Origin: a bacterium
Lineage (GTDB): Bacteria > Patescibacteriota > Gracilibacteria > UBA1369 > LOWO2-01-FULL-3
Reading direction: 5' to 3'
Length of the DNA stretch: 29,692 nt
Assembly (NCBI GenBank): GCA_027622635.1
Contig: JAQBYK010000001.1
Location: 1 to 29,692 of the forward strand
Below, piece after piece: positions 1,095 to 8,667 of this stretch. A program made the position numbers and the translations under genes. Positions within the stretch are counted from its first letter, which is position 1. Each line of letters starts with the position of its first letter. A model generated the notes under the pieces. It had not been told where the DNA came from. It saw nothing but the letters and a program-made list of their open reading frames with translations, and ran no database searches.

Positions 1095-1122
1095 TTTACA
1101 AAAAAAAGATCTCTGCTAATAT
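1095..1122 (+). promoter_or_regulatory. Sigma70-type promoter of the ilv leader/operon
   Basis: TTTACA (1095-1100), 16 nt spacer, TGc-TAATAT (-10 at 1117-1122, extended TG at 1114-1115). The predicted start site (about 1129-1130) coincides with the leader ATG. Confidence 0.6.
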
Positions 1123-1129
1123 CAACACA

Positions 1130-1177
1130 ATGAAACGTCTCATACTAATTATTTCAGTGCTAATTATTATCCTCTAG
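1130..1177 (+). CDS. ilvL: ilv operon leader (attenuator) peptide MKRLILIISVLIIIL
   Basis: ATG AAA CGT CTC ATA CTA ATT ATT TCA GTG CTA ATT ATT ATC CTC TAG: 15 aa, 11 of them Ile (6), Leu (4) or Val (1), no Thr. Lies directly upstream of a terminator and the ilv genes. Too short for the ORF track. Confidence 0.88.
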   Translation: MKRLILIISVLIIIL

Positions 1178-1203
1178 TCCAGAGAGACGTTTGCATTAAA
1201 AGT

Positions 1204-1237
1204 AAAAACCTCTCTGCACTGCAAAGAGGATTTTTTT
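1204..1237 (+). terminator. Intrinsic terminator of the attenuator
   Basis: AAAAA-CCTCT-C-TGC-act-GCA-A-AGAGG-A-TTTTTTT. Confidence 0.85.
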
Positions 1238-1291: not shown

Positions 1292-3130
1292 ATGGTCACA
1301 CTAAACGAAAATTTCTACACCCTTCAATGCATAAACTGCAAAGCGGAATTTGATGAGCACACAACCTGCACAAAGTGCCTCAAATGTGGCTGTTCTCTTG
1401 ACGTAATCTACAACTATGATTTTATTAAGCAGCGATTAAATCTCTACGCGCTCAAGCATTCGCCCATATCGGCACTAAAATACCTGACATTCTATCCGAT
1501 CATAGATTTATCGAAAATCATCACTTTAAACGAAGGTGGAACACCACTTCACCACTGCAAAAATCTTTCAAAAAAATATAAACTAAACAATCTTTTCATA
1601 AAAAATGAAGGAGCAAACCCAACCGGAGTATTCAAAGATAGAGGCACACTTGTAGAAATAACGAAAGCCCAGGAAATGGGGGCAAAAGCGGTTTGTTTTG
1701 CATCAACAGGAAACATGGCTGCATCTGTAGCCGCCTATTGTACTCAGGCAAAACTTCCTTGCTACGTTTTGGTACCGGAAGGAACCCCAATCGGAAAATT
1801 GGCGCAAACACTTTCATATGGCGCAAGAATAATCCAGGTACGTGGCACATACTCTCAGTGTTCTAAATTGGCCGAACAAATGGCCAAGAAGCACGGCTTC
1901 TTTTTGGCGGGAGATTATGCGTTCAGACTTGAAGGTCAAAAATCTCAGGCATACGAAATAGCCGAACAGCTGGGTTGGAAAGCTCCTGATTATCTCGTGT
2001 GCCCGGTTGGAGTAGGCACAAACATATCGGCAATTTGGAAAGGATTCAGTGAGCTTCATAAATTAGACTTAATCGACAAGCTCCCAAAAATAATAGCGGT
2101 ACAACCTGATGGATGTGATGTTGTTGTTCGAGCCTTTAATTCCAAAAGCAAAAAATTAGTGGAAATCGAAAAACCAAACACCGTGTGTAGCGCAGTCGCG
2201 GTTTCAATGCCATTCGATGGAATGAAAGTACTAAAAGCTCTAAAAGATTCCGGTGGTTGTGGAGTTAGCATACCTGACGAAGAAGTTCTGGCAATTGAGC
2301 AAACTTTAGCCAGAGAAGAGGCTATATTTGTTGAACCGTCGGGTGCTCTTCCTCTTGCCGCAGTGGCAAAGTTAAGTGAGAAAGGATTCTTTAAAAAAGA
2401 TGACACCATTGTTTGTGTGGCAACAGGTAATGGGCTCAAAGACCCAAAATCCGCGGTAAAAATTATTCCGGACCCTCCCACAATTGATCCCGAATTATCA
2501 GAAGTAGACAATTACCTTAAATACAAACTTTATCAAATCCAATCCGAGGGGGTTAAAAATCGAAGTAAAATTCTTTGGAAAAAAATTCCTTCGGAAAAAG
2601 ATTTAAAAAAGATTGTCCATGATGAATTCGGAATCAATTTAAGTAAGGCGGTATTGAAAGGCACTACTGATAGCATCAAAAAATTTGAGACAAAAGGCAA
2701 GAAGATAAATAAACAAGATATTCAAAATATTATTGAAGAACAGCTGGACGAATATAATCAGAAGGAAAAACATCTCAAGATAATAGATTTCGAAGTTAAA
2801 ACTTCTAAATACAAAGAGGCGGAGGCAAGTATTAAACTAAGCTATGGAAATAAAATACTTATTGAGCAGGCCAAGGGTGTAGGTGCGGTAGATGCGATAA
2901 TAAGTGCTCTAAAAAAAGCCATCAAAGGTCACGATAAACTGGAAATAAAACTAATAGACTACAATGTTGAAATATTCACGGGCGGTGTTGAAGCAGCAGT
3001 GAAAGTTGTTATGACCGCTATTGATAAAAATGGAAATCGTATCATCGCACAGGCTACATCACCTGACGTAATCGTAGCCTCGGTAAGTGCTTTTGAGAAA
3101 TGCTACAACTTCCTATACCACAGAAAATAA
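1292..3130 (+). CDS. thrC: Threonine-synthase-like PLP enzyme fused to a C-terminal LeuA/CimA-type allosteric (dimerisation) domain
   Basis: N-terminal CxxC..CxxC zinc ribbon; KNEGANPTGVFKDRG (PLP Lys115), ASTGN, RLEGQKS, FVEPSGA, TGNGLKDP (fold-type II ThrC, to about aa 385). Aa 494-612 match the LeuA_dimer pattern GVGAVDAIISAL..IKLIDYNV..GGVEAAVKV..ATSPDVIVASVSAF..N. Confidence 0.85.
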   Translation: MVTLNENFYTLQCINCKAEFDEHTTCTKCLKCGCSLDVIYNYDFIKQRLNLYALKHSPISALKYLTFYPIIDLSKIITLNEGGTPLHHCKNLSKKYKLNNLFIKNEGANPTGVFKDRGTLVEITKAQEMGAKAVCFASTGNMAASVAAYCTQAKLPCYVLVPEGTPIGKLAQTLSYGARIIQVRGTYSQCSKLAEQMAKKHGFFLAGDYAFRLEGQKSQAYEIAEQLGWKAPDYLVCPVGVGTNISAIWKGFSELHKLDLIDKLPKIIAVQPDGCDVVVRAFNSKSKKLVEIEKPNTVCSAVAVSMPFDGMKVLKALKDSGGCGVSIPDEEVLAIEQTLAREEAIFVEPSGALPLAAVAKLSEKGFFKKDDTIVCVATGNGLKDPKSAVKIIPDPPTIDPELSEVDNYLKYKLYQIQSEGVKNRSKILWKKIPSEKDLKKIVHDEFGINLSKAVLKGTTDSIKKFETKGKKINKQDIQNIIEEQLDEYNQKEKHLKIIDFEVKTSKYKEAEASIKLSYGNKILIEQAKGVGAVDAIISALKKAIKGHDKLEIKLIDYNVEIFTGGVEAAVKVVMTAIDKNGNRIIAQATSPDVIVASVSAFEKCYNFLYHRK

Positions 3131-3142
3131 ACCAAACTATAA

Positions 3143-4066
3143 ATGTCTAAAACTTTTCCCTACACATACATAAAAGGAAGAACAACTAGGACAAAAGACG
3201 CAAAAGTGCCTATCCAATGCAAGGCCATTCAATATGGACTTGGTTGCTTTACCGGCATTCGCGGATTCTGGCATAAGAAAAAAAAGAATCTTTATCTATT
3301 CAGACTTGAAGATCACTACAAAAGACTTAAGAATTCTTCCAAACTTTTGGGAATGAAATTCGACTACACATATCCGGAGTTCAGAGAGATCATTTTTAAA
3401 TTGGTAAAACGCAATAAGGTCAAAGAAGACCTATATATAAGACCAACTCTATATGCGGCATCAACACTTCTCACACCTCGTTTTGATAACCCGGATGACG
3501 ATCTTGCCATTTACATGATATCTCTAAAAAATTATTTCAAAGCAGATCGAGGATTAAATGTTTGTATTAGCAGCTGGACCAGATTTAGTGACGACATCAT
3601 TCCGACAAAAGCAAAAAGTACCGGTGCATATGCCAATGGTGCGCTCGCAAAAACAGAAGCTTTGAGAAAAGGTTTCGATGAGCCAATATTCTTAGACGCA
3701 AAAGGCAATGTATGCGAAGCCAGTGGCGCCAACATTTTTGGCATAAAGAATGGAGTGATCTGGACTCCACCAACGACAGCCAGCATTTTAAACGGAATTA
3801 CTCGTGACAGCTTAATCAAACTCGCAAGGAAAGAACTCAAACTAAAAGTTGAAGAGAAAAATTTCAAGAAGGAAAAGCTATTTCAATTTGATGAATTATT
3901 CTTGTCGGGCACAGCAGCGAAAATCACTCCGGTAGCAAGTGTGGATAAAAAGAAAATTGGAAATGCATCGCTGGGTCCAATTACCGCGCAACTAAAAACA
4001 CTATATGACAAAGCTGTAATGACTGACCTAAAAGGTTACGAGAAATGGTGTACATCTATATATTAA
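3143..4066 (+). CDS. ilvE: Branched-chain amino acid aminotransferase
   Basis: [30 protein letters not shown] (PLP Lys), [23 protein letters not shown]: fold-type IV aminotransferase, in ilv context. Confidence 0.92.
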
Positions 4067-4073
4067 ATTAATC

Positions 4074-5759
4074 ATGACTAATCAAAATCTCAAAAAAAGG
4101 AGTTCACTTATGACGGATGGAGACGCTCGTGCTCCAAGTCGCGCTATGCTTCGTGGCACAGGATTTAAGGACGAAGATTTTAAAAAACCACTAATAGGGG
4201 TTGCCAGTTGTTGGAGTGAAATCACAACTTGTAATATGCACCTGGACAAATTAGCAAAGAGTGCAAGGGATGGAGTTTGGGATAACGAAGGGGCAGCGCA
4301 AATATTCGGGACAATCACAGTTTCCGATGGTATTTCCATGGGACATGAAGGTATGAAGTATTCACTTGTAAGCCGCGAAGTAATTGCTGACTCAATTGAG
4401 ACGGTTGCCGGCGCGCAGCGCTTTGATGGCCTGATTTGTGTAGGTGGTTGTGACAAGAATATGCCCGGATCCCTTATGGCAATCGCCAGAGTAAACGCAC
4501 CTGCAATATTCATATACGGAGGAACAATAATGCCGGGTAAATTTGAAGGAAAAGACATCGACATAGTTAGTATTTTCGAAGCCGTTGGCAAATTCCAGTC
4601 CAAAAAAATAGACGAAAAAGAATTTCACGAAATTGAATGCAATGCCTGCCCGGGGCCGGGATCATGTGGTGGCATGTACACCGCAAATACAATGTCATCA
4701 GCAATCGAAGCACTTGGGATGGCTTTGCCATATGGATCTACAACACCTGGAATTTCAACTGAAAAATTAGAAGAATGCGAAAAAGCGGGGAAACAAGTTC
4801 TGGAACTAATCAAAAACAACATCACTCCGGACAAAATTATGACAAAAAAAGCATTTGAAAATGCAATTACGGTAGCCCTGGTACTGGGTGGATCAACAAA
4901 TGCGGTTCTACATTTGTTAGCCATGGCTCATTGTATTGGGGTAGAGCTAAACTTAGAAGACTTCAATCGCTTGTCGGATAAAACCCCACAACTGGCAAAT
5001 CTAAAACCGGGAGGAAAATATGTGACAGTCGATCTACATCGTATAGGAGGACTTCCCGCTGTCATGAAAACGCTACTTGATGCAGGAATGATCCACGGAG
5101 AATGTATGACTGTTACTGGAAAAACTGTTGCGGAAAATTTAGAAAACGTTTCACATTTTTCAAAAGATCAGGACGTTGTTATGCAACTGGAAAATCCAAT
5201 AACCAAAACCGGCCCATTTGCAATATTGCACGGGAATCTGGCGCCTGAAGGTGCGGTTGTAAAAATTAAGGGACTAAAAGCAACCAAGCACAGTGGCCCT
5301 GCAAAAATTTATGATTGTGAAGAAGATGCATTCCACGCGATTGAGCAAGACAAAGTAAAAGCCGGTGACACAGTGGTAATAAGACATGAAGGACCCAAGG
5401 GCGGCCCGGGAATGCGCGAAATGCTGTCAGTCACCTCGGCACTAATCGGCAAAGGGATTGGCCACGAAGTTGCGCTTATTACAGATGGTCGCTTCTCAGG
5501 TGGAAGTCATGGATTCATCATAGGACACACAGCCCCGGAGGCATATGTTGGTGGACCTATCGCACTAATCAAGGACGGCGACATCATCAACATAGATTTG
5601 GAAAATAAATCAATGGACGTAGAACTCAGTGAAGAAGAGCTCGCAAAGCGCCTTGAAAACTGGACAAAACCGGCCCCTAAGTATAAATTTGGGGTCTTAC
5701 GCAAGTATATTGAAACAGTCGGCTCACCAAAATACGGTGCTATCACAGATAAATTTTAA
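4074..5759 (+). CDS. ilvD: Dihydroxy-acid dehydratase
   Basis: [73 protein letters not shown]. Confidence 0.97.
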
Positions 5760-5773
5760 TTAACCTAAAAACC

Positions 5774-6820
5774 ATGACAAAATTAAATTTCGGAGGCAAA
5801 GACGAAGAAGTTGTTACACGCGAAGAACTTCCTCTATCAAAGGCACAAGAAATATTGAAAGACGAAACTATCGCAGTCTTAGGCTACGGAGTGCAAGGGC
5901 CGGGTCAAGCAATGAACCTAAAAGACAACGGCATCAATGTAATAATCGGCCAAAGAAAAGGCGGTGATTCATGGGAAAAGGCCCTTAAAGACGGATGGGT
6001 GGAAGGCGAAACACTTTTTGAGCTTGAAGAAGCGGCAGAAAAGGGAACCGTATTAATGTATTTACTTTCAGATGCGGGACAGAAAATGTGTTGGCATAAG
6101 GTGCGACAGCACCTTAAAAAGGGAAATGCGCTATATTTCTCACATGGTTTTTCGATAGTTTACAAAGACCAAACCGGAGTTATACCACCGGAAGACGTGG
6201 ATGTGATTCTTGTCGCACCAAAAGGACCGGGAGGGAAACTAAGAGAACTCTTCCTAAAAGGAGAAGGTGTTAATTCAAGTTTTGCCATTCACCGGGACGC
6301 TACCGGTAATGCAAGAGATCGCGCTCTCGCACTTGGTATCGCGGTCGGATCAGGGTTCTTATTTGAAACTACATTTGAAAAAGAAGTTGTAAGCGATTTA
6401 ACAGGCGAAAGAGGTGTCCTTATGGGGGCAATAGCTGGAATAATGGAGGCTCAGTACAACATTCTTAGAAAAAACGGACACAGCCCATCAGAAGCTTTTA
6501 ACGAGACTGTTGAAGAAGCCACTCAAAGTTTAATTCCTTTAATAGGAGAAAACGGAATGGATTGGATGTACGCAAATTGCTCCACGACAGCTCAGAGAGG
6601 TGCATTGGATTGGAGACACAAATTCCGCGAGGCCACAGAACCGGTATTTGAAAAACTATATGACAGCGTCAAAACGGGAAAAGAAACAGAGATTGTACTT
6701 AAAGCGAATAGCGATCCAAATTATAAAGAAAAACTGAAAGAAGAACTCGACGAAATGGCAAAGTCGGAAATGTGGCAGGCAGGACGTACAGTTAGATCCT
6801 TGCGGCCAAAAGCCAGTTAA
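5774..6820 (+). CDS. ilvC: Ketol-acid reductoisomerase (Bacteroidetes/fungal Ilv5-like type)
   Basis: GYGVQGPGQ Rossmann motif, YFSHGF, VAPKGPG, SDLTGERGVLMG, EAFNETVEE, NCSTTAQRGALDW; N-terminal LNFGGKDEEVVTREE extension. Confidence 0.95.
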   Translation: MTKLNFGGKDEEVVTREELPLSKAQEILKDETIAVLGYGVQGPGQAMNLKDNGINVIIGQRKGGDSWEKALKDGWVEGETLFELEEAAEKGTVLMYLLSDAGQKMCWHKVRQHLKKGNALYFSHGFSIVYKDQTGVIPPEDVDVILVAPKGPGGKLRELFLKGEGVNSSFAIHRDATGNARDRALALGIAVGSGFLFETTFEKEVVSDLTGERGVLMGAIAGIMEAQYNILRKNGHSPSEAFNETVEEATQSLIPLIGENGMDWMYANCSTTAQRGALDWRHKFREATEPVFEKLYDSVKTGKETEIVLKANSDPNYKEKLKEELDEMAKSEMWQAGRTVRSLRPKAS

Positions 6821-6828
6821 GAAATCAG

Positions 6829-8667
6829 ATGCTAAAAACTAAATCACAAAAAGTGAAAAAAGAAGCAATCAAACCCCATAACAGGGCAAACATAACGCAC
6901 AACATACCAAAAACTCTAACGGGAGCAGACTTGTTTTGCCAAGCCCTTGCGGACCAAGGTGTTGAGATAATGTTTGGAATACCGGGAGGAGTTGTTTTAC
7001 CACTTTATGATAGAATAAATAAGTATGGTCATCATATCAGGCATATATTACCAAGCCACGAACAAGGTGGAGGATTTGCAGCGGACGGCTACGCCAGAGT
7101 TACGGGCGAAGTGGGAGTAGCCCTTGGAACATCCGGGCCGGGTGCCACAAATCTCATGACCGCAATTGCAAATTCGATGATGGATTCTGTGCCAACTGTG
7201 TATATAACCGGACAGGTTGTTGAAAATTTCATTGGCACAGACGCATTCCAGGAAACGGACGTAATCGGGATGTCTATGCCGATTGTTAAGCATAGCTATC
7301 TGGTGACCCAAGCAAGGGACATTTCACGAGTAGTAAAAGAAGCATTTTATATCGCGAAAACGGGACGCCCGGGCCCGGTTCACATTGATCTGGTGAAAGA
7401 CATCTGGTTTCAGGAGGCAAAGTACAAGTCGGATCCAAAGATGGACTTGCCGGGCTATAGTCCCATTGCTGAACATTGCAGCGATCGTGATATTGCAAAG
7501 CTGGATATTCTTTTAGAAAAAAAAGGTGTGAAGCCAATTATTTTTGCAGGGCATGGAGTCGAATTATCGGGAGCCCAGGCAGAGTTGGTAGAATTTGCGG
7601 AGAAGCATAACATACCTGTAGCTTCCACTCTACTGAACTTGGGAAATTTCCCGCAAGGGCATGAACTTTGGGCTGGAATGATAGGAATGCACGGCGATGC
7701 GGTCACAAACTACGCCACACATGACGCAAATCTTATCATCGGCATTGGGTGTCGTTTTGATGACCGTATTACAGGTAAACTTGAGACATTCATAAAGGAC
7801 ACAACATTCGTGCACATGGAAATCGATCCATCCGAAATTGGGAAAATTGTGCCCACAGAATTACCTTTGCCAGGAGATGTAAAAGACTTGTTAACTCGTG
7901 CAAATAAAGTGCTTTCCAATCACACTTTTCCGGACTGGTGGGATCAAATAAACAAATGGAAAAAGAAATATGGTTTTCTCGATTTCAAATTAAATCCTGA
8001 AAACGATAAGAAATTCTTAAGTCAGCCCAGAATAATACAGATGCTATCAGAAATTACTAACGGCGAGGCAATTGTCGCAGCTGATGTAGGTCGTCACCAA
8101 ATGTGGACAGGTCGATTCTATCGTTTCAAAAATCCAAATTCCAATCTCACATCGGGAGGGCTGGGGTCTATGGGGTACGGTTTGCCGGCTGCTATGGGAG
8201 CAAAACTCGGAAAACCGGATCGCGAAGTATGGAATATCTCGGGTGATGGTGGATTTATGATGAATGTACAAGAACTCGCGACTATAGCCGAACACAAAAT
8301 TCCTGTCAAAATTGCAATTATGGAGGACAAAGCACTCGGGATGGTAAGGCAATGGCAAAATCTGCTTTTCAAAGGAAACCTTTCTCATTCCGTATTAACA
8401 AACCCGGATTTCGTAAAATTATCCGAATCCTTTGGCATCCCTGCCTGGCGTGCACACAGCTACAAAGAAGCGGAAAAAGCAATTAAAGAAGCACGAAAAG
8501 TAGATGGGCCGGCTTTGATAACATTCATGGTCGACCCGGACGAACACGTCTACCCAATGGTCCCACCCAATACCGCACTTGGCGATCAAGCCCTTAAAGA
8601 CTCAGATCTATTACAAGATAAAGCCCATAAATATGACGAAGAAGACTTACTACAAGGTCACACTTAG
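6829..8667 (+). CDS. ilvB: Acetolactate synthase (AHAS) large subunit
   Basis: FGIPGG, HEQG (catalytic Glu), TSGPGATN, ITGQV, FQETD, GRPGPVHID, GMIGMHG, RFDDR, SGGLGSMGYGLPAA, GDGGF ThDP motif, LGMVRQWQ. Confidence 0.95.
   Translation: MLKTKSQKVKKEAIKPHNRANITHNIPKTLTGADLFCQALADQGVEIMFGIPGGVVLPLYDRINKYGHHIRHILPSHEQGGGFAADGYARVTGEVGVALGTSGPGATNLMTAIANSMMDSVPTVYITGQVVENFIGTDAFQETDVIGMSMPIVKHSYLVTQARDISRVVKEAFYIAKTGRPGPVHIDLVKDIWFQEAKYKSDPKMDLPGYSPIAEHCSDRDIAKLDILLEKKGVKPIIFAGHGVELSGAQAELVEFAEKHNIPVASTLLNLGNFPQGHELWAGMIGMHGDAVTNYATHDANLIIGIGCRFDDRITGKLETFIKDTTFVHMEIDPSEIGKIVPTELPLPGDVKDLLTRANKVLSNHTFPDWWDQINKWKKKYGFLDFKLNPENDKKFLSQPRIIQMLSEITNGEAIVAADVGRHQMWTGRFYRFKNPNSNLTSGGLGSMGYGLPAAMGAKLGKPDREVWNISGDGGFMMNVQELATIAEHKIPVKIAIMEDKALGMVRQWQNLLFKGNLSHSVLTNPDFVKLSESFGIPAWRAHSYKEAEKAIKEARKVDGPALITFMVDPDEHVYPMVPPNTALGDQALKDSDLLQDKAHKYDEEDLLQGHT

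Follow-up and report, generated by a model that had tools for sequence, protein, structure and literature searches.

A conserved leader-peptide element, very probably an isoleucine-sensing transcription attenuator, in front of an Ile/Val biosynthesis operon of Peregrinibacteria

Ribosome-mediated attenuation is a textbook mechanism, represented by the trpL, ilvL and ivbL leaders. In the enterobacterial leaders ilvL (of ilvGMEDA) and ivbL (of ilvBN), it depends on stalling of the ribosome at Ile, Leu or Val codons whether an antiterminator or an intrinsic terminator forms; these leaders have 32 codons, depend on a Shine-Dalgarno (SD) sequence, are multivalent (Ile+Leu+Val or Leu+Val) and contain tandem hairpins. 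We performed a computational analysis of a stretch of 29,692 nt (the window; contig JAQBYK010000001.1 of assembly GCA_027622635.1, positions 1 to 29,692 of the forward strand), in which a short element at positions 1095-1237 adjoins the 5′ side of an Ile/Val biosynthesis operon. This element is very probably a ribosome-mediated leader-peptide transcription attenuator, which senses the supply of isoleucyl-tRNA and gates the ThrC-like/ilvE/ilvD/ilvC/ilvB operon. The source is a metagenome-assembled genome (MAG) of the Peregrinibacteria/Peribacteria (1.16 Mb, 84% complete), and an earlier interpretation made from the nucleotide sequence alone (the sequence-only reading) had correctly described it as resembling genomes of the Candidate Phyla Radiation (CPR). 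CPR bacteria are usually described as minimal in biosynthesis, with few regulators.

The window locus shares with the enterobacterial leaders the predicted logic of stalling on codons for branched-chain amino acids (BCAAs) in front of BCAA genes, and differs from them in being short (15 codons), probably leaderless and dominated by Ile. The closest described case is the attenuator of the Corynebacterium glutamicum ilvBNC operon, whose leader peptide IlvL has 15 residues (MTIIRLVVVTARRLP), whose transcript starts one nucleotide from the leader start codon, and whose RNA forms three hairpins, the first of which shields the initiation site (PMC11857589). Common to both are (i) a 15-codon, BCAA-rich leader in front of an ilv operon under its control, (ii) an effectively leaderless mRNA (predicted here) and (iii) three competing hairpins, predicted here to act as a start-shielding anti-antiterminator, an antiterminator and a terminator. 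The two elements have no sequence relationship and come from different phyla; the C. glutamicum leader is mainly Val-responsive and has a leader region of 292 nt, whereas the present one has an Ile run and a length of about 108 nt. The pairing between the end of the short open reading frame (sORF) and the 3′ arm of the terminator, found here, is not described in PMC11857589.

Two other systems are analogous. The mycobacterial polycysteine sORFs, which are leaderless and control the downstream operon by cysteine supply (bioRxiv 10.1101/834739), resemble the present locus (for which leaderlessness is predicted) in that a short ORF enriched in a single amino acid opens the mRNA, but they sense cysteine and occur in Actinobacteria. 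The Staphylococcus aureus ilv-leu operon (PMC5794164) is another case of a leader peptide attenuating a BCAA operon outside the Proteobacteria; unlike the Ile-rich leader described here, its peptide is Leu-rich, acts with CodY and is not leaderless. A full-text literature search found no publication on leader-peptide attenuators in the CPR/Patescibacteria. As far as this search shows, the mechanism is a known one; the sequence family and the lineage are new to it, and the nested pairing that would keep the element OFF by default is a local variation. It would imply that a Peregrinibacteria lineage which keeps Ile/Val synthesis also kept or evolved control with the ribosome as sensor, apparently on a leaderless mRNA and in an organism that barely uses SD sites.

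The element is composed of the following parts.

1095-1122, + strand: promoter predicted by consensus scan, with -35 TTTACA (1095-1100), a 16-nt spacer and extended -10 TGcTAATAT (1114-1122); TTTAC and TGCTA..A..T are invariant in five genera
1130-1177, + strand: leader sORF MKRLILIISVLIIIL-stop, 15 codons, from ATG 1130 to TAG 1175-1177; Ile codons at 1142-1144, 1148-1153 and 1163-1171
1130-1141, + strand: segment 1a, the start codon and codons 2-4; pairs with 1184-1196 as a putative anti-antiterminator burying the AUG (from duplex energy)
1169-1178, + strand: segment 1b, the last two sense codons and the stop codon (ATCCTCTAGT); pairs with 1218-1220 and 1225-1231
1180-1186, + strand: segment 2, antiterminator 5′ arm CAGAGAG; pairs with CTCTCTG 1210-1216
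1190-1206, + strand: small inner hairpin UUUGC/GUAAA capping the antiterminator; sequence variable among relatives (alignment A7)
1209-1217, + strand: segment 3, shared arm CCTCTCTGC; 1210-1216 pairs with segment 2, 1209-1213 and 1215-1217 with segment 4
1221-1237, + strand: segment 4, terminator 3′ arm GCA.AGAGG (1221-1229), then A and a T7 tract (1231-1237), from the predicted fold

The leader peptide MKRLILIISVLIIIL contains 6 Ile, 4 Leu and 1 Val residues, i.e. 11 BCAA codons out of 15, as the sequence-only reading had stated. The -10 box is separated from ATG 1130 by 7 nt (1123-1129), the probable transcript start is 1129 or 1130, and no SD sequence was seen upstream of the sORF. A stem of 9+3 bp buries the start codon: ATG (1130-1132) pairs with CAT (1194-1196), and AAACGTCTC (1133-1141) pairs with GAGACGTTT (1184-1192), with a duplex energy of -14.3 kcal/mol (z = -4.25 against shuffled sequences). 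The antiterminator fold (1178-1218) reaches -12.8 kcal/mol (z = -4.5), a value equalled by none of 200 shuffles. In the terminator, CCTCT (1209-1213) pairs with AGAGG (1225-1229) around an inner stem of 3 bp, and T7 comes next (-9.2 kcal/mol, z = -2.7); its 5′ arm overlaps the antiterminator partner (1210-1216).

The start-burying stem, the 7-bp antiterminator and the T7 terminator reported earlier are all present, overlapping and mutually exclusive. That list was incomplete, since a fourth pairing had been overlooked: the end of the sORF, ATCCTCT(AGT) (1169-1178), pairs with 1218-1220 and with AGAGGAT (1225-1231). This pairing of segments 1b and 4 (1b:4) encloses the antiterminator (2:3) and creates one long hairpin abutting the T-run (-24.0 kcal/mol, z = -5.1).

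From these features we infer the following course of events. Transcription would start at or within 1 nt of AUG 1130, and the ribosome would probably load directly on the 5′ AUG. When Ile-tRNA is scarce, the ribosome would stall on the Ile codons 1148-1153 or, above all, 1163-1171, covering segment 1b and leaving 1180-1186 free; segment 2 would pair with 1210-1216 once this is made, the 3′ arm 1225-1229 would be left without a partner, and RNA polymerase would read into the operon. When Ile-tRNA is plentiful, the ribosome would be found at the last codons or at TAG 1175-1177 with its footprint covering segment 2, so that the 1209-1229 hairpin would form before T7 and transcription would stop near 1235. 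In the absence of a ribosome, or after its release, either segment 1a would pair with segment 2 and free the terminator, or 1b:4 would close around 2:3; both folds are expected to terminate, which would make OFF the default state. A search for RNA-seq runs of this DNA returned none.

The effect of the ribosome was simulated with constrained partition functions (equilibrium only), in which everything 5′ of the A-site codon and 10 nt beyond it were masked. For 13 of 15 leaders, including that of the window, the probability of the terminator (3:4) was about 0-0.15 with the A site on the Ile run and 0.8-0.99 once it had reached the last two codons or the stop, the switch taking place between codons -3 and -2. 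Within this equilibrium model, folding with and without a ribosome footprint thus reproduced the change from antiterminator to terminator that the sequence-only reading led one to expect. The ribosome-free RNA of the window leader adopted the long 1b:4 + 2:3 hairpin, which still ends at the T-tract, and termination is therefore the expected default state.

We also examined the conservation of the element at loci fetched via the ThrC-like protein encoded by the first gene of the operon; 17 of them keep the 5′ end of this gene and the upstream DNA. An Ile-run sORF, the hairpin pair and a T-run are located 11-118 nt before the start codon of the ThrC-like gene in 14 of the 17, and a 15th locus (L019), which is cut at a contig end, has kept, about 125 nt ahead of the start codon, the end of the sORF together with the hairpin pair and the T-run. 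The leader DNA of the window is 72-79% identical to that of four other genera. The five-genus alignment shows no variation in the promoter hexamers, in the start codon or in ATTATTATCCTCTAG, and the indels among the leader sORFs are multiples of 3. The orthologous sORFs have 13-25 codons, and 15-25 at the 14 loci just mentioned, with the Ile run followed by 1-2 codons and the stop; the purine-rich segment 2 starts 1-5 nt past this stop and is followed by segment 3, segment 4 and the T-run. The hairpin and the T-run occur in all 17 leaders that were compared.

The ThrC-like gene is present in 18 of the 56 genomes of the family, in 16 of which its 5′ end is assembled. The leader was detected in 15 of these 16 assessable genomes (14 match model R1, and G060 matches model R3), and R1 matched one (G021) of the 38 family genomes lacking the gene. 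Comparison with relatives (family loci and alignment A7) shows conservation of the sORF and the promoter and, with covariation, of the stems, which places the element far outside what chance would produce. The same conservation, whose absence the sequence-only reading had named as grounds for refutation, supports the proposal that a CPR genome contains a ribosome-stalling leader-peptide attenuator of a BCAA operon.

These data bear on two other explanations of the whole element. The hairpin with T7 may simply terminate the upstream membrane-protein gene (713-1093, stop at 1093), in which case the operon promoter would be located at 1256-1285 and the sORF would be fortuitous. There is no terminator between that gene and the leader, and a promoter-like sequence (TTGAAA 1256-1261, 18 nt, TAAATT 1280-1285) ends 6 nt before ATG 1292, which is a leaderless geometry. 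Such an arrangement is nevertheless very improbable, given that relatives share the sORF with its Ile run as well as the competing stems, which covary, that the leader promoter itself is conserved, and that the leader stays with the ThrC-like gene where the upstream gene is a different one. Moreover, in most relatives the T-run lies only 11-22 nt from the structural start codon, which leaves too little room for a separate promoter.

The terminator/antiterminator pair, taken alone, would fit equally a switch that is independent of translation, i.e. a riboswitch, a T-box-like tRNA sensor or the target of a regulatory protein. An Rfam scan of 600-1800 (E up to 10), in which the families Leu_leader, Thr_leader, His_leader, Trp_leader and leu/phe leader as well as T-box were considered, gave only chance-level matches below the gathering scores, with no leader family and no T-box. 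Between the arms there is only a short stretch, variable in sequence and without a conserved ligand pocket; what is conserved is the ORF, its in-frame Ile run, the codon phase of the indels and the fixed distances between Ile codons, stop and segment 2. There is consequently little to recommend a switch of this type, and attenuation by a translating ribosome is strongly preferred.

Covariation of the stems was assessed in a structure-guided alignment. A plain MAFFT alignment of 15 leaders (A3) misregistered the stems, and RNAalifold recovered only 4 pairs from it; model R1, built from alignment A2, had segment 4 misaligned and was replaced by R2, based on three cleanly aligned seeds. Alignment A7 contains 18 leaders realigned to this seeded model, and R3 is the model built from A7. 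The nested structure (1b:4 + 2:3) is paired in 90.7% of the cells of A7, with changes on both sides in 13 of 17 pairs, although A7 was fitted to this structure, which inflates these counts; none of 500 shuffles was as good, and pairing fell to 57% or less when the partners were slid. Helix 1 (1b:4) has 7 pairs (91.9% paired, 4 pairs changed on both sides) and helix 2 (2:3, the antiterminator) has 10 pairs (89.9% paired, 9 pairs changed on both sides). A7 does have two anchors, the stop codon for segment 1b and the T-run for segment 4. The alignment was not fitted to the terminator (3:4), which is paired in 83.7% of cells, compared with at most 62.8% when slid by 1-3 columns, with 8 cells changed on both sides and 1-2 of 500 shuffles as good; this figure is an underestimate, because divergent rows are out of register there.

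In divergent lineages the arms are exchanged as a whole, from CCTCT/AGAGG to CCTCCG/CGGAGG, CCACC/GGTGG or CCTCG/CGAGG, and segment 2 and the end of the sORF change accordingly. By eye, the common form is CCTCTCTG/AGAGG with CAGAGAG, and L017 and L018 have CCCTCCGCC/CGGAGG with GGCCGAGGG. L024 and L026 contain GCCACCAC/GGGTGG with GGTGG, and their last sORF codons are GCC GCC. An arm-swapping test gave mean energies of -12.0 (own partners) versus -8.2 kcal/mol (foreign partners) for 2:3 and -10.0 versus -6.6 kcal/mol for 3:4, values that carry little weight as the automatic segmentation failed for L039 and L020. The pairing of the 5′ part of the sORF with segment 2 gave negative z values for 15 of the 17 leaders (mean -1.7) and involved the start codon in 8 of them; its position is not strictly conserved. 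The last sORF codon varies (CTC, TTC, GCC, or TCG in G021) along with segment 4, which suggests that the terminal "Leu" codon is mostly kept for RNA pairing and not as an amino acid.

In order to predict the amino acid that is sensed, we compared the codon content of the 17 leaders with the proteome. Ile accounts for 99 of 256 internal residues (39%, versus 7.9% of the proteome), Leu for 16% (versus 9.3%) and Val for 9% (versus 6.4%), and several leaders lack Leu or lack Val. Synonymous exchanges between ATT, ATC and ATA preserve Ile, which forms two conserved clusters upstream of the stop, "II" at a distance of about 8-9 codons and "III(I)" at 2-5 codons. This pattern points to a leader that senses mainly isoleucine. 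Of the Ile/Leu/Val sensor proposed by the sequence-only reading, the attenuator of a BCAA operon stands, conserved and covarying; the conserved control codons are those for Ile, and Leu and Val are variable. The link to host-derived amino acids drawn in that reading is speculative.

The operon that would be regulated was annotated with Pfam and NCBIfam as follows.

1292-8667, + strand: regulated operon
1292-3130, + strand: fusion of a ThrC-family PALP domain and LeuA_dimer, first gene of the operon
3143-4066, + strand: ilvE
4074-5759, + strand: ilvD
5774-6820, + strand: ilvC
6829-8667, + strand: ilvB-like gene for a thiamine pyrophosphate (TPP) enzyme

The first enzyme matches the threonine-synthase family NF006050 (311 bits) and carries a fused allosteric domain of the LeuA/CimA type (LeuA_dimer). 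The operon contains neither ilvA nor leu genes. Sensing of mainly Ile agrees with the lack of leu genes and with the CimA/LeuA-type sensor domain of the first enzyme, and an Ile-specific leader would fit a ThrC-like/LeuA_dimer enzyme that makes an isoleucine precursor. The leader family thus supports the idea that this ThrC-like enzyme belongs to isoleucine synthesis.

Model R3 was run on 151 genomes of the order, 18 of which matched, and sister leaders were found in front of other biosynthetic genes: (i) MKFSAKNIINLVIIITQ-stop precedes a ThrC-like gene in another family of the order, (ii) leaders of the form M..YIIGIII(I)PR-stop precede ilvE in two genomes, (iii) MNKTAQNIIIAIIISSPHGE-stop precedes an HMGL-like LeuA/CimA synthase, and (iv) the Phe/Trp/Tyr-rich leaders MQHRSSNQFWSFYFYPSS-stop and MRTHSFSFWAYFYPLA-stop precede a 3-deoxy-D-arabino-heptulosonate 7-phosphate (DAHP) synthase (PF00793 + PF18152) in two genomes. 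The leaders in front of DAHP synthase (L049 of G083, 1501-1627, and L057 of G121, 1501-1621) have the same hairpin architecture and are, by prediction from codons and folds, aromatic amino-acid attenuators of the same order. Leader-peptide attenuation is classically recognized by control codons that change with the pathway.

This match of codons and pathways is hard to reconcile with a plain terminator, or with the proposal that the sORF encodes a functional hydrophobic micropeptide (a membrane peptide or type I toxin) and that the hairpin is its own terminator. The strongly hydrophobic peptide of conserved length and character would suit such a function. Its C-terminal residues, however, follow the RNA partner (Leu, Phe, Ala-Ala, Ser), unlike those of a protein; the sister leaders are aromatic-rich or polar, and not hydrophobic, in agreement with the downstream pathway, and the element is tied to biosynthetic genes. 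We therefore consider a micropeptide highly improbable as the explanation of the element, and return to the attenuator, besides which the peptide may have a role in trans.

Translation of the leader was considered in the light of the start signals used by the source genome. An SD-like 4-mer is found at -20 to -5 in 8% of 754 long ORFs, compared with 21% inside genes; since SD sites are hardly used, the lack of one at the leader is uninformative. Hexamers resembling a -10 box show a sharp peak before the ATGs of long ORFs, with 54 genes at 6 nt and 17 at 7 nt over a background of about 5, and a second broad hump at 20-27 nt. Leaderless mRNAs appear to be common in this genome, as indicated by the 6-7 nt peak. 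Among the 17 leaders the spacer between the -10 box and the start codon is 6-8 nt in 9, about 9-10 nt in 3 and 20-24 nt in 5. A leaderless start is probable at the window leader, because its 7-nt spacer falls within the genome-wide peak. The leaderless mRNA postulated by the sequence-only reading is thus favoured by the spacing, and the missing SD sequence, which had been offered as a further reason, proves nothing.

It is less likely, but deserves serious consideration, that the attenuator is genuine and its mRNA is not leaderless, transcription starting further upstream or reading through from gene 713-1093, with internal SD-independent initiation at the sORF. Initiation of this kind must be routine in a genome that hardly uses SD sites, the path from the upstream gene (stop at 1093) is free of terminators, and the 5 orthologous leaders of 17 with a -10 box 20-24 nt upstream of the ATG agree with it. 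On the other side stand the conserved extended -10 box that ends 7 nt before the ATG, the spacer of 6-10 nt in about 12 of 17 leaders, and the genome-wide peak at 6-7 nt, by which leaderless starts appear to be frequent in this organism.

Besides the fitting of A7 mentioned above, several observations weigh against the proposed leaderless attenuator. The gene-carrying genome G056 (L013) has no leader, its gene sitting directly behind another gene, and an archaeal-labelled MAG (L027) also lacks one. In the simulation, L016 never left the terminator fold, whatever the position of the ribosome, and L021 switched several codons early. The terminator and antiterminator are of similar stability (-9.2 and -12.8 kcal/mol in isolation, -10.3 kcal/mol each in the constrained model); the switch would therefore rest on kinetic order, and the calculations made here are of equilibrium. 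The -10 box lies 20-24 nt from the start in L010, L011, L012, L014, L025 and L039, which means that strict leaderlessness is not universal, and the sORFs of L024 and L026 would begin with GTG. Finally, the promoter-like TTGAAA-18-TAAATT sequence, a weaker version of which is found in a same-genus relative, could bypass the attenuator. The homologue in L027 is a close one of the ThrC-LeuA_dimer gene (52% identity) on a contig binned as Candidatus Aenigmatarchaeota, for which gene transfer or a binning error is possible.

The promoter-like sequence is part of the following feature.

1240-1291, + strand: A/T-rich repeat element of ATTGAAA/ATTGTAA heptamers between the terminator and the first gene, recognized from the sequence (54 nt from the T-tract to ATG 1292)

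If this repeat is a promoter, part of the expression of the operon would escape the attenuator. Similar heptamer runs are located 0-10 nt before the starts of rpsS, SufB-like, NadE-like and other genes of the source genome (G000; C90:2376-2412, C95:1025-1079, C32:7118-7145, C134:13904-13938 and C16:4063-4097). The rpsS gene is normally internal to a ribosomal-protein operon, and because one of the runs precedes it, a role of the repeat as an SD-independent translation enhancer (or standby site) is at least as likely as that of a promoter.

It is conceivable, although we put it forward only tentatively and at somewhat less than even chances, that a modular, mostly leaderless attenuator chassis serves as a general amino-acid sensor of Peregrinibacteria, with 1b:4 closure, a default OFF state and leaders re-coded for Ile or for Phe/Trp/Tyr. 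In that case the unknown genes that such leaders precede would count as new participants in isoleucine supply, among them those of the kinase-fold protein of G021, the small proteins of G074 and G134, the ATP-grasp-like protein of G160 and the Cys/Met-type enzyme of G314 described below. The leaders offer a guilt-by-association handle on unknown genes behind them, and the family provides a ready covariance model for the annotation of such leaders.

In G021, which has no ilv operon, a paralogous Ile leader (MSAIIISSIIIIS-stop; L044, G021:C59, minus strand, near 1502-1615) has its own co-varied stems, CGAGGCT/AGCCTCG and CCTCG/CGAGG, with a T-run. The gene behind it (L044:618-1487, minus strand) encodes a protein of 290 aa, which gave no Pfam or NCBIfam match and whose Atlas model weakly resembles protein-kinase-like folds (TM 0.52-0.56). 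Ile-run leaders with terminators also precede the gene of an ATP-grasp-like protein of 427 aa (L048, G160) and those of proteins of ~92 aa (L050, G074, and L053, G134).

A metagenome scan for the invariant 15-mer ATTATTATCCTCTAG returned at least 120 matching stretches; none of the 80 listed loci matched R3 (E up to 0.001), and these were rejected as chance matches. Among 150 other Patescibacteria genomes sampled across the phylum, G314 alone gave a match; as the model recognizes one sequence family only, this result says little about other attenuators of the CPR. The leader of G314 (L058, 1498-1610) is of the L024/L026 type (MKALLSVLLVLVIIIAA-stop) and, in a different family of the phylum, precedes a pyridoxal phosphate (PLP) enzyme of Cys/Met metabolism (PF01053), which could be a 2-oxobutanoate source of the methionine gamma-lyase type.

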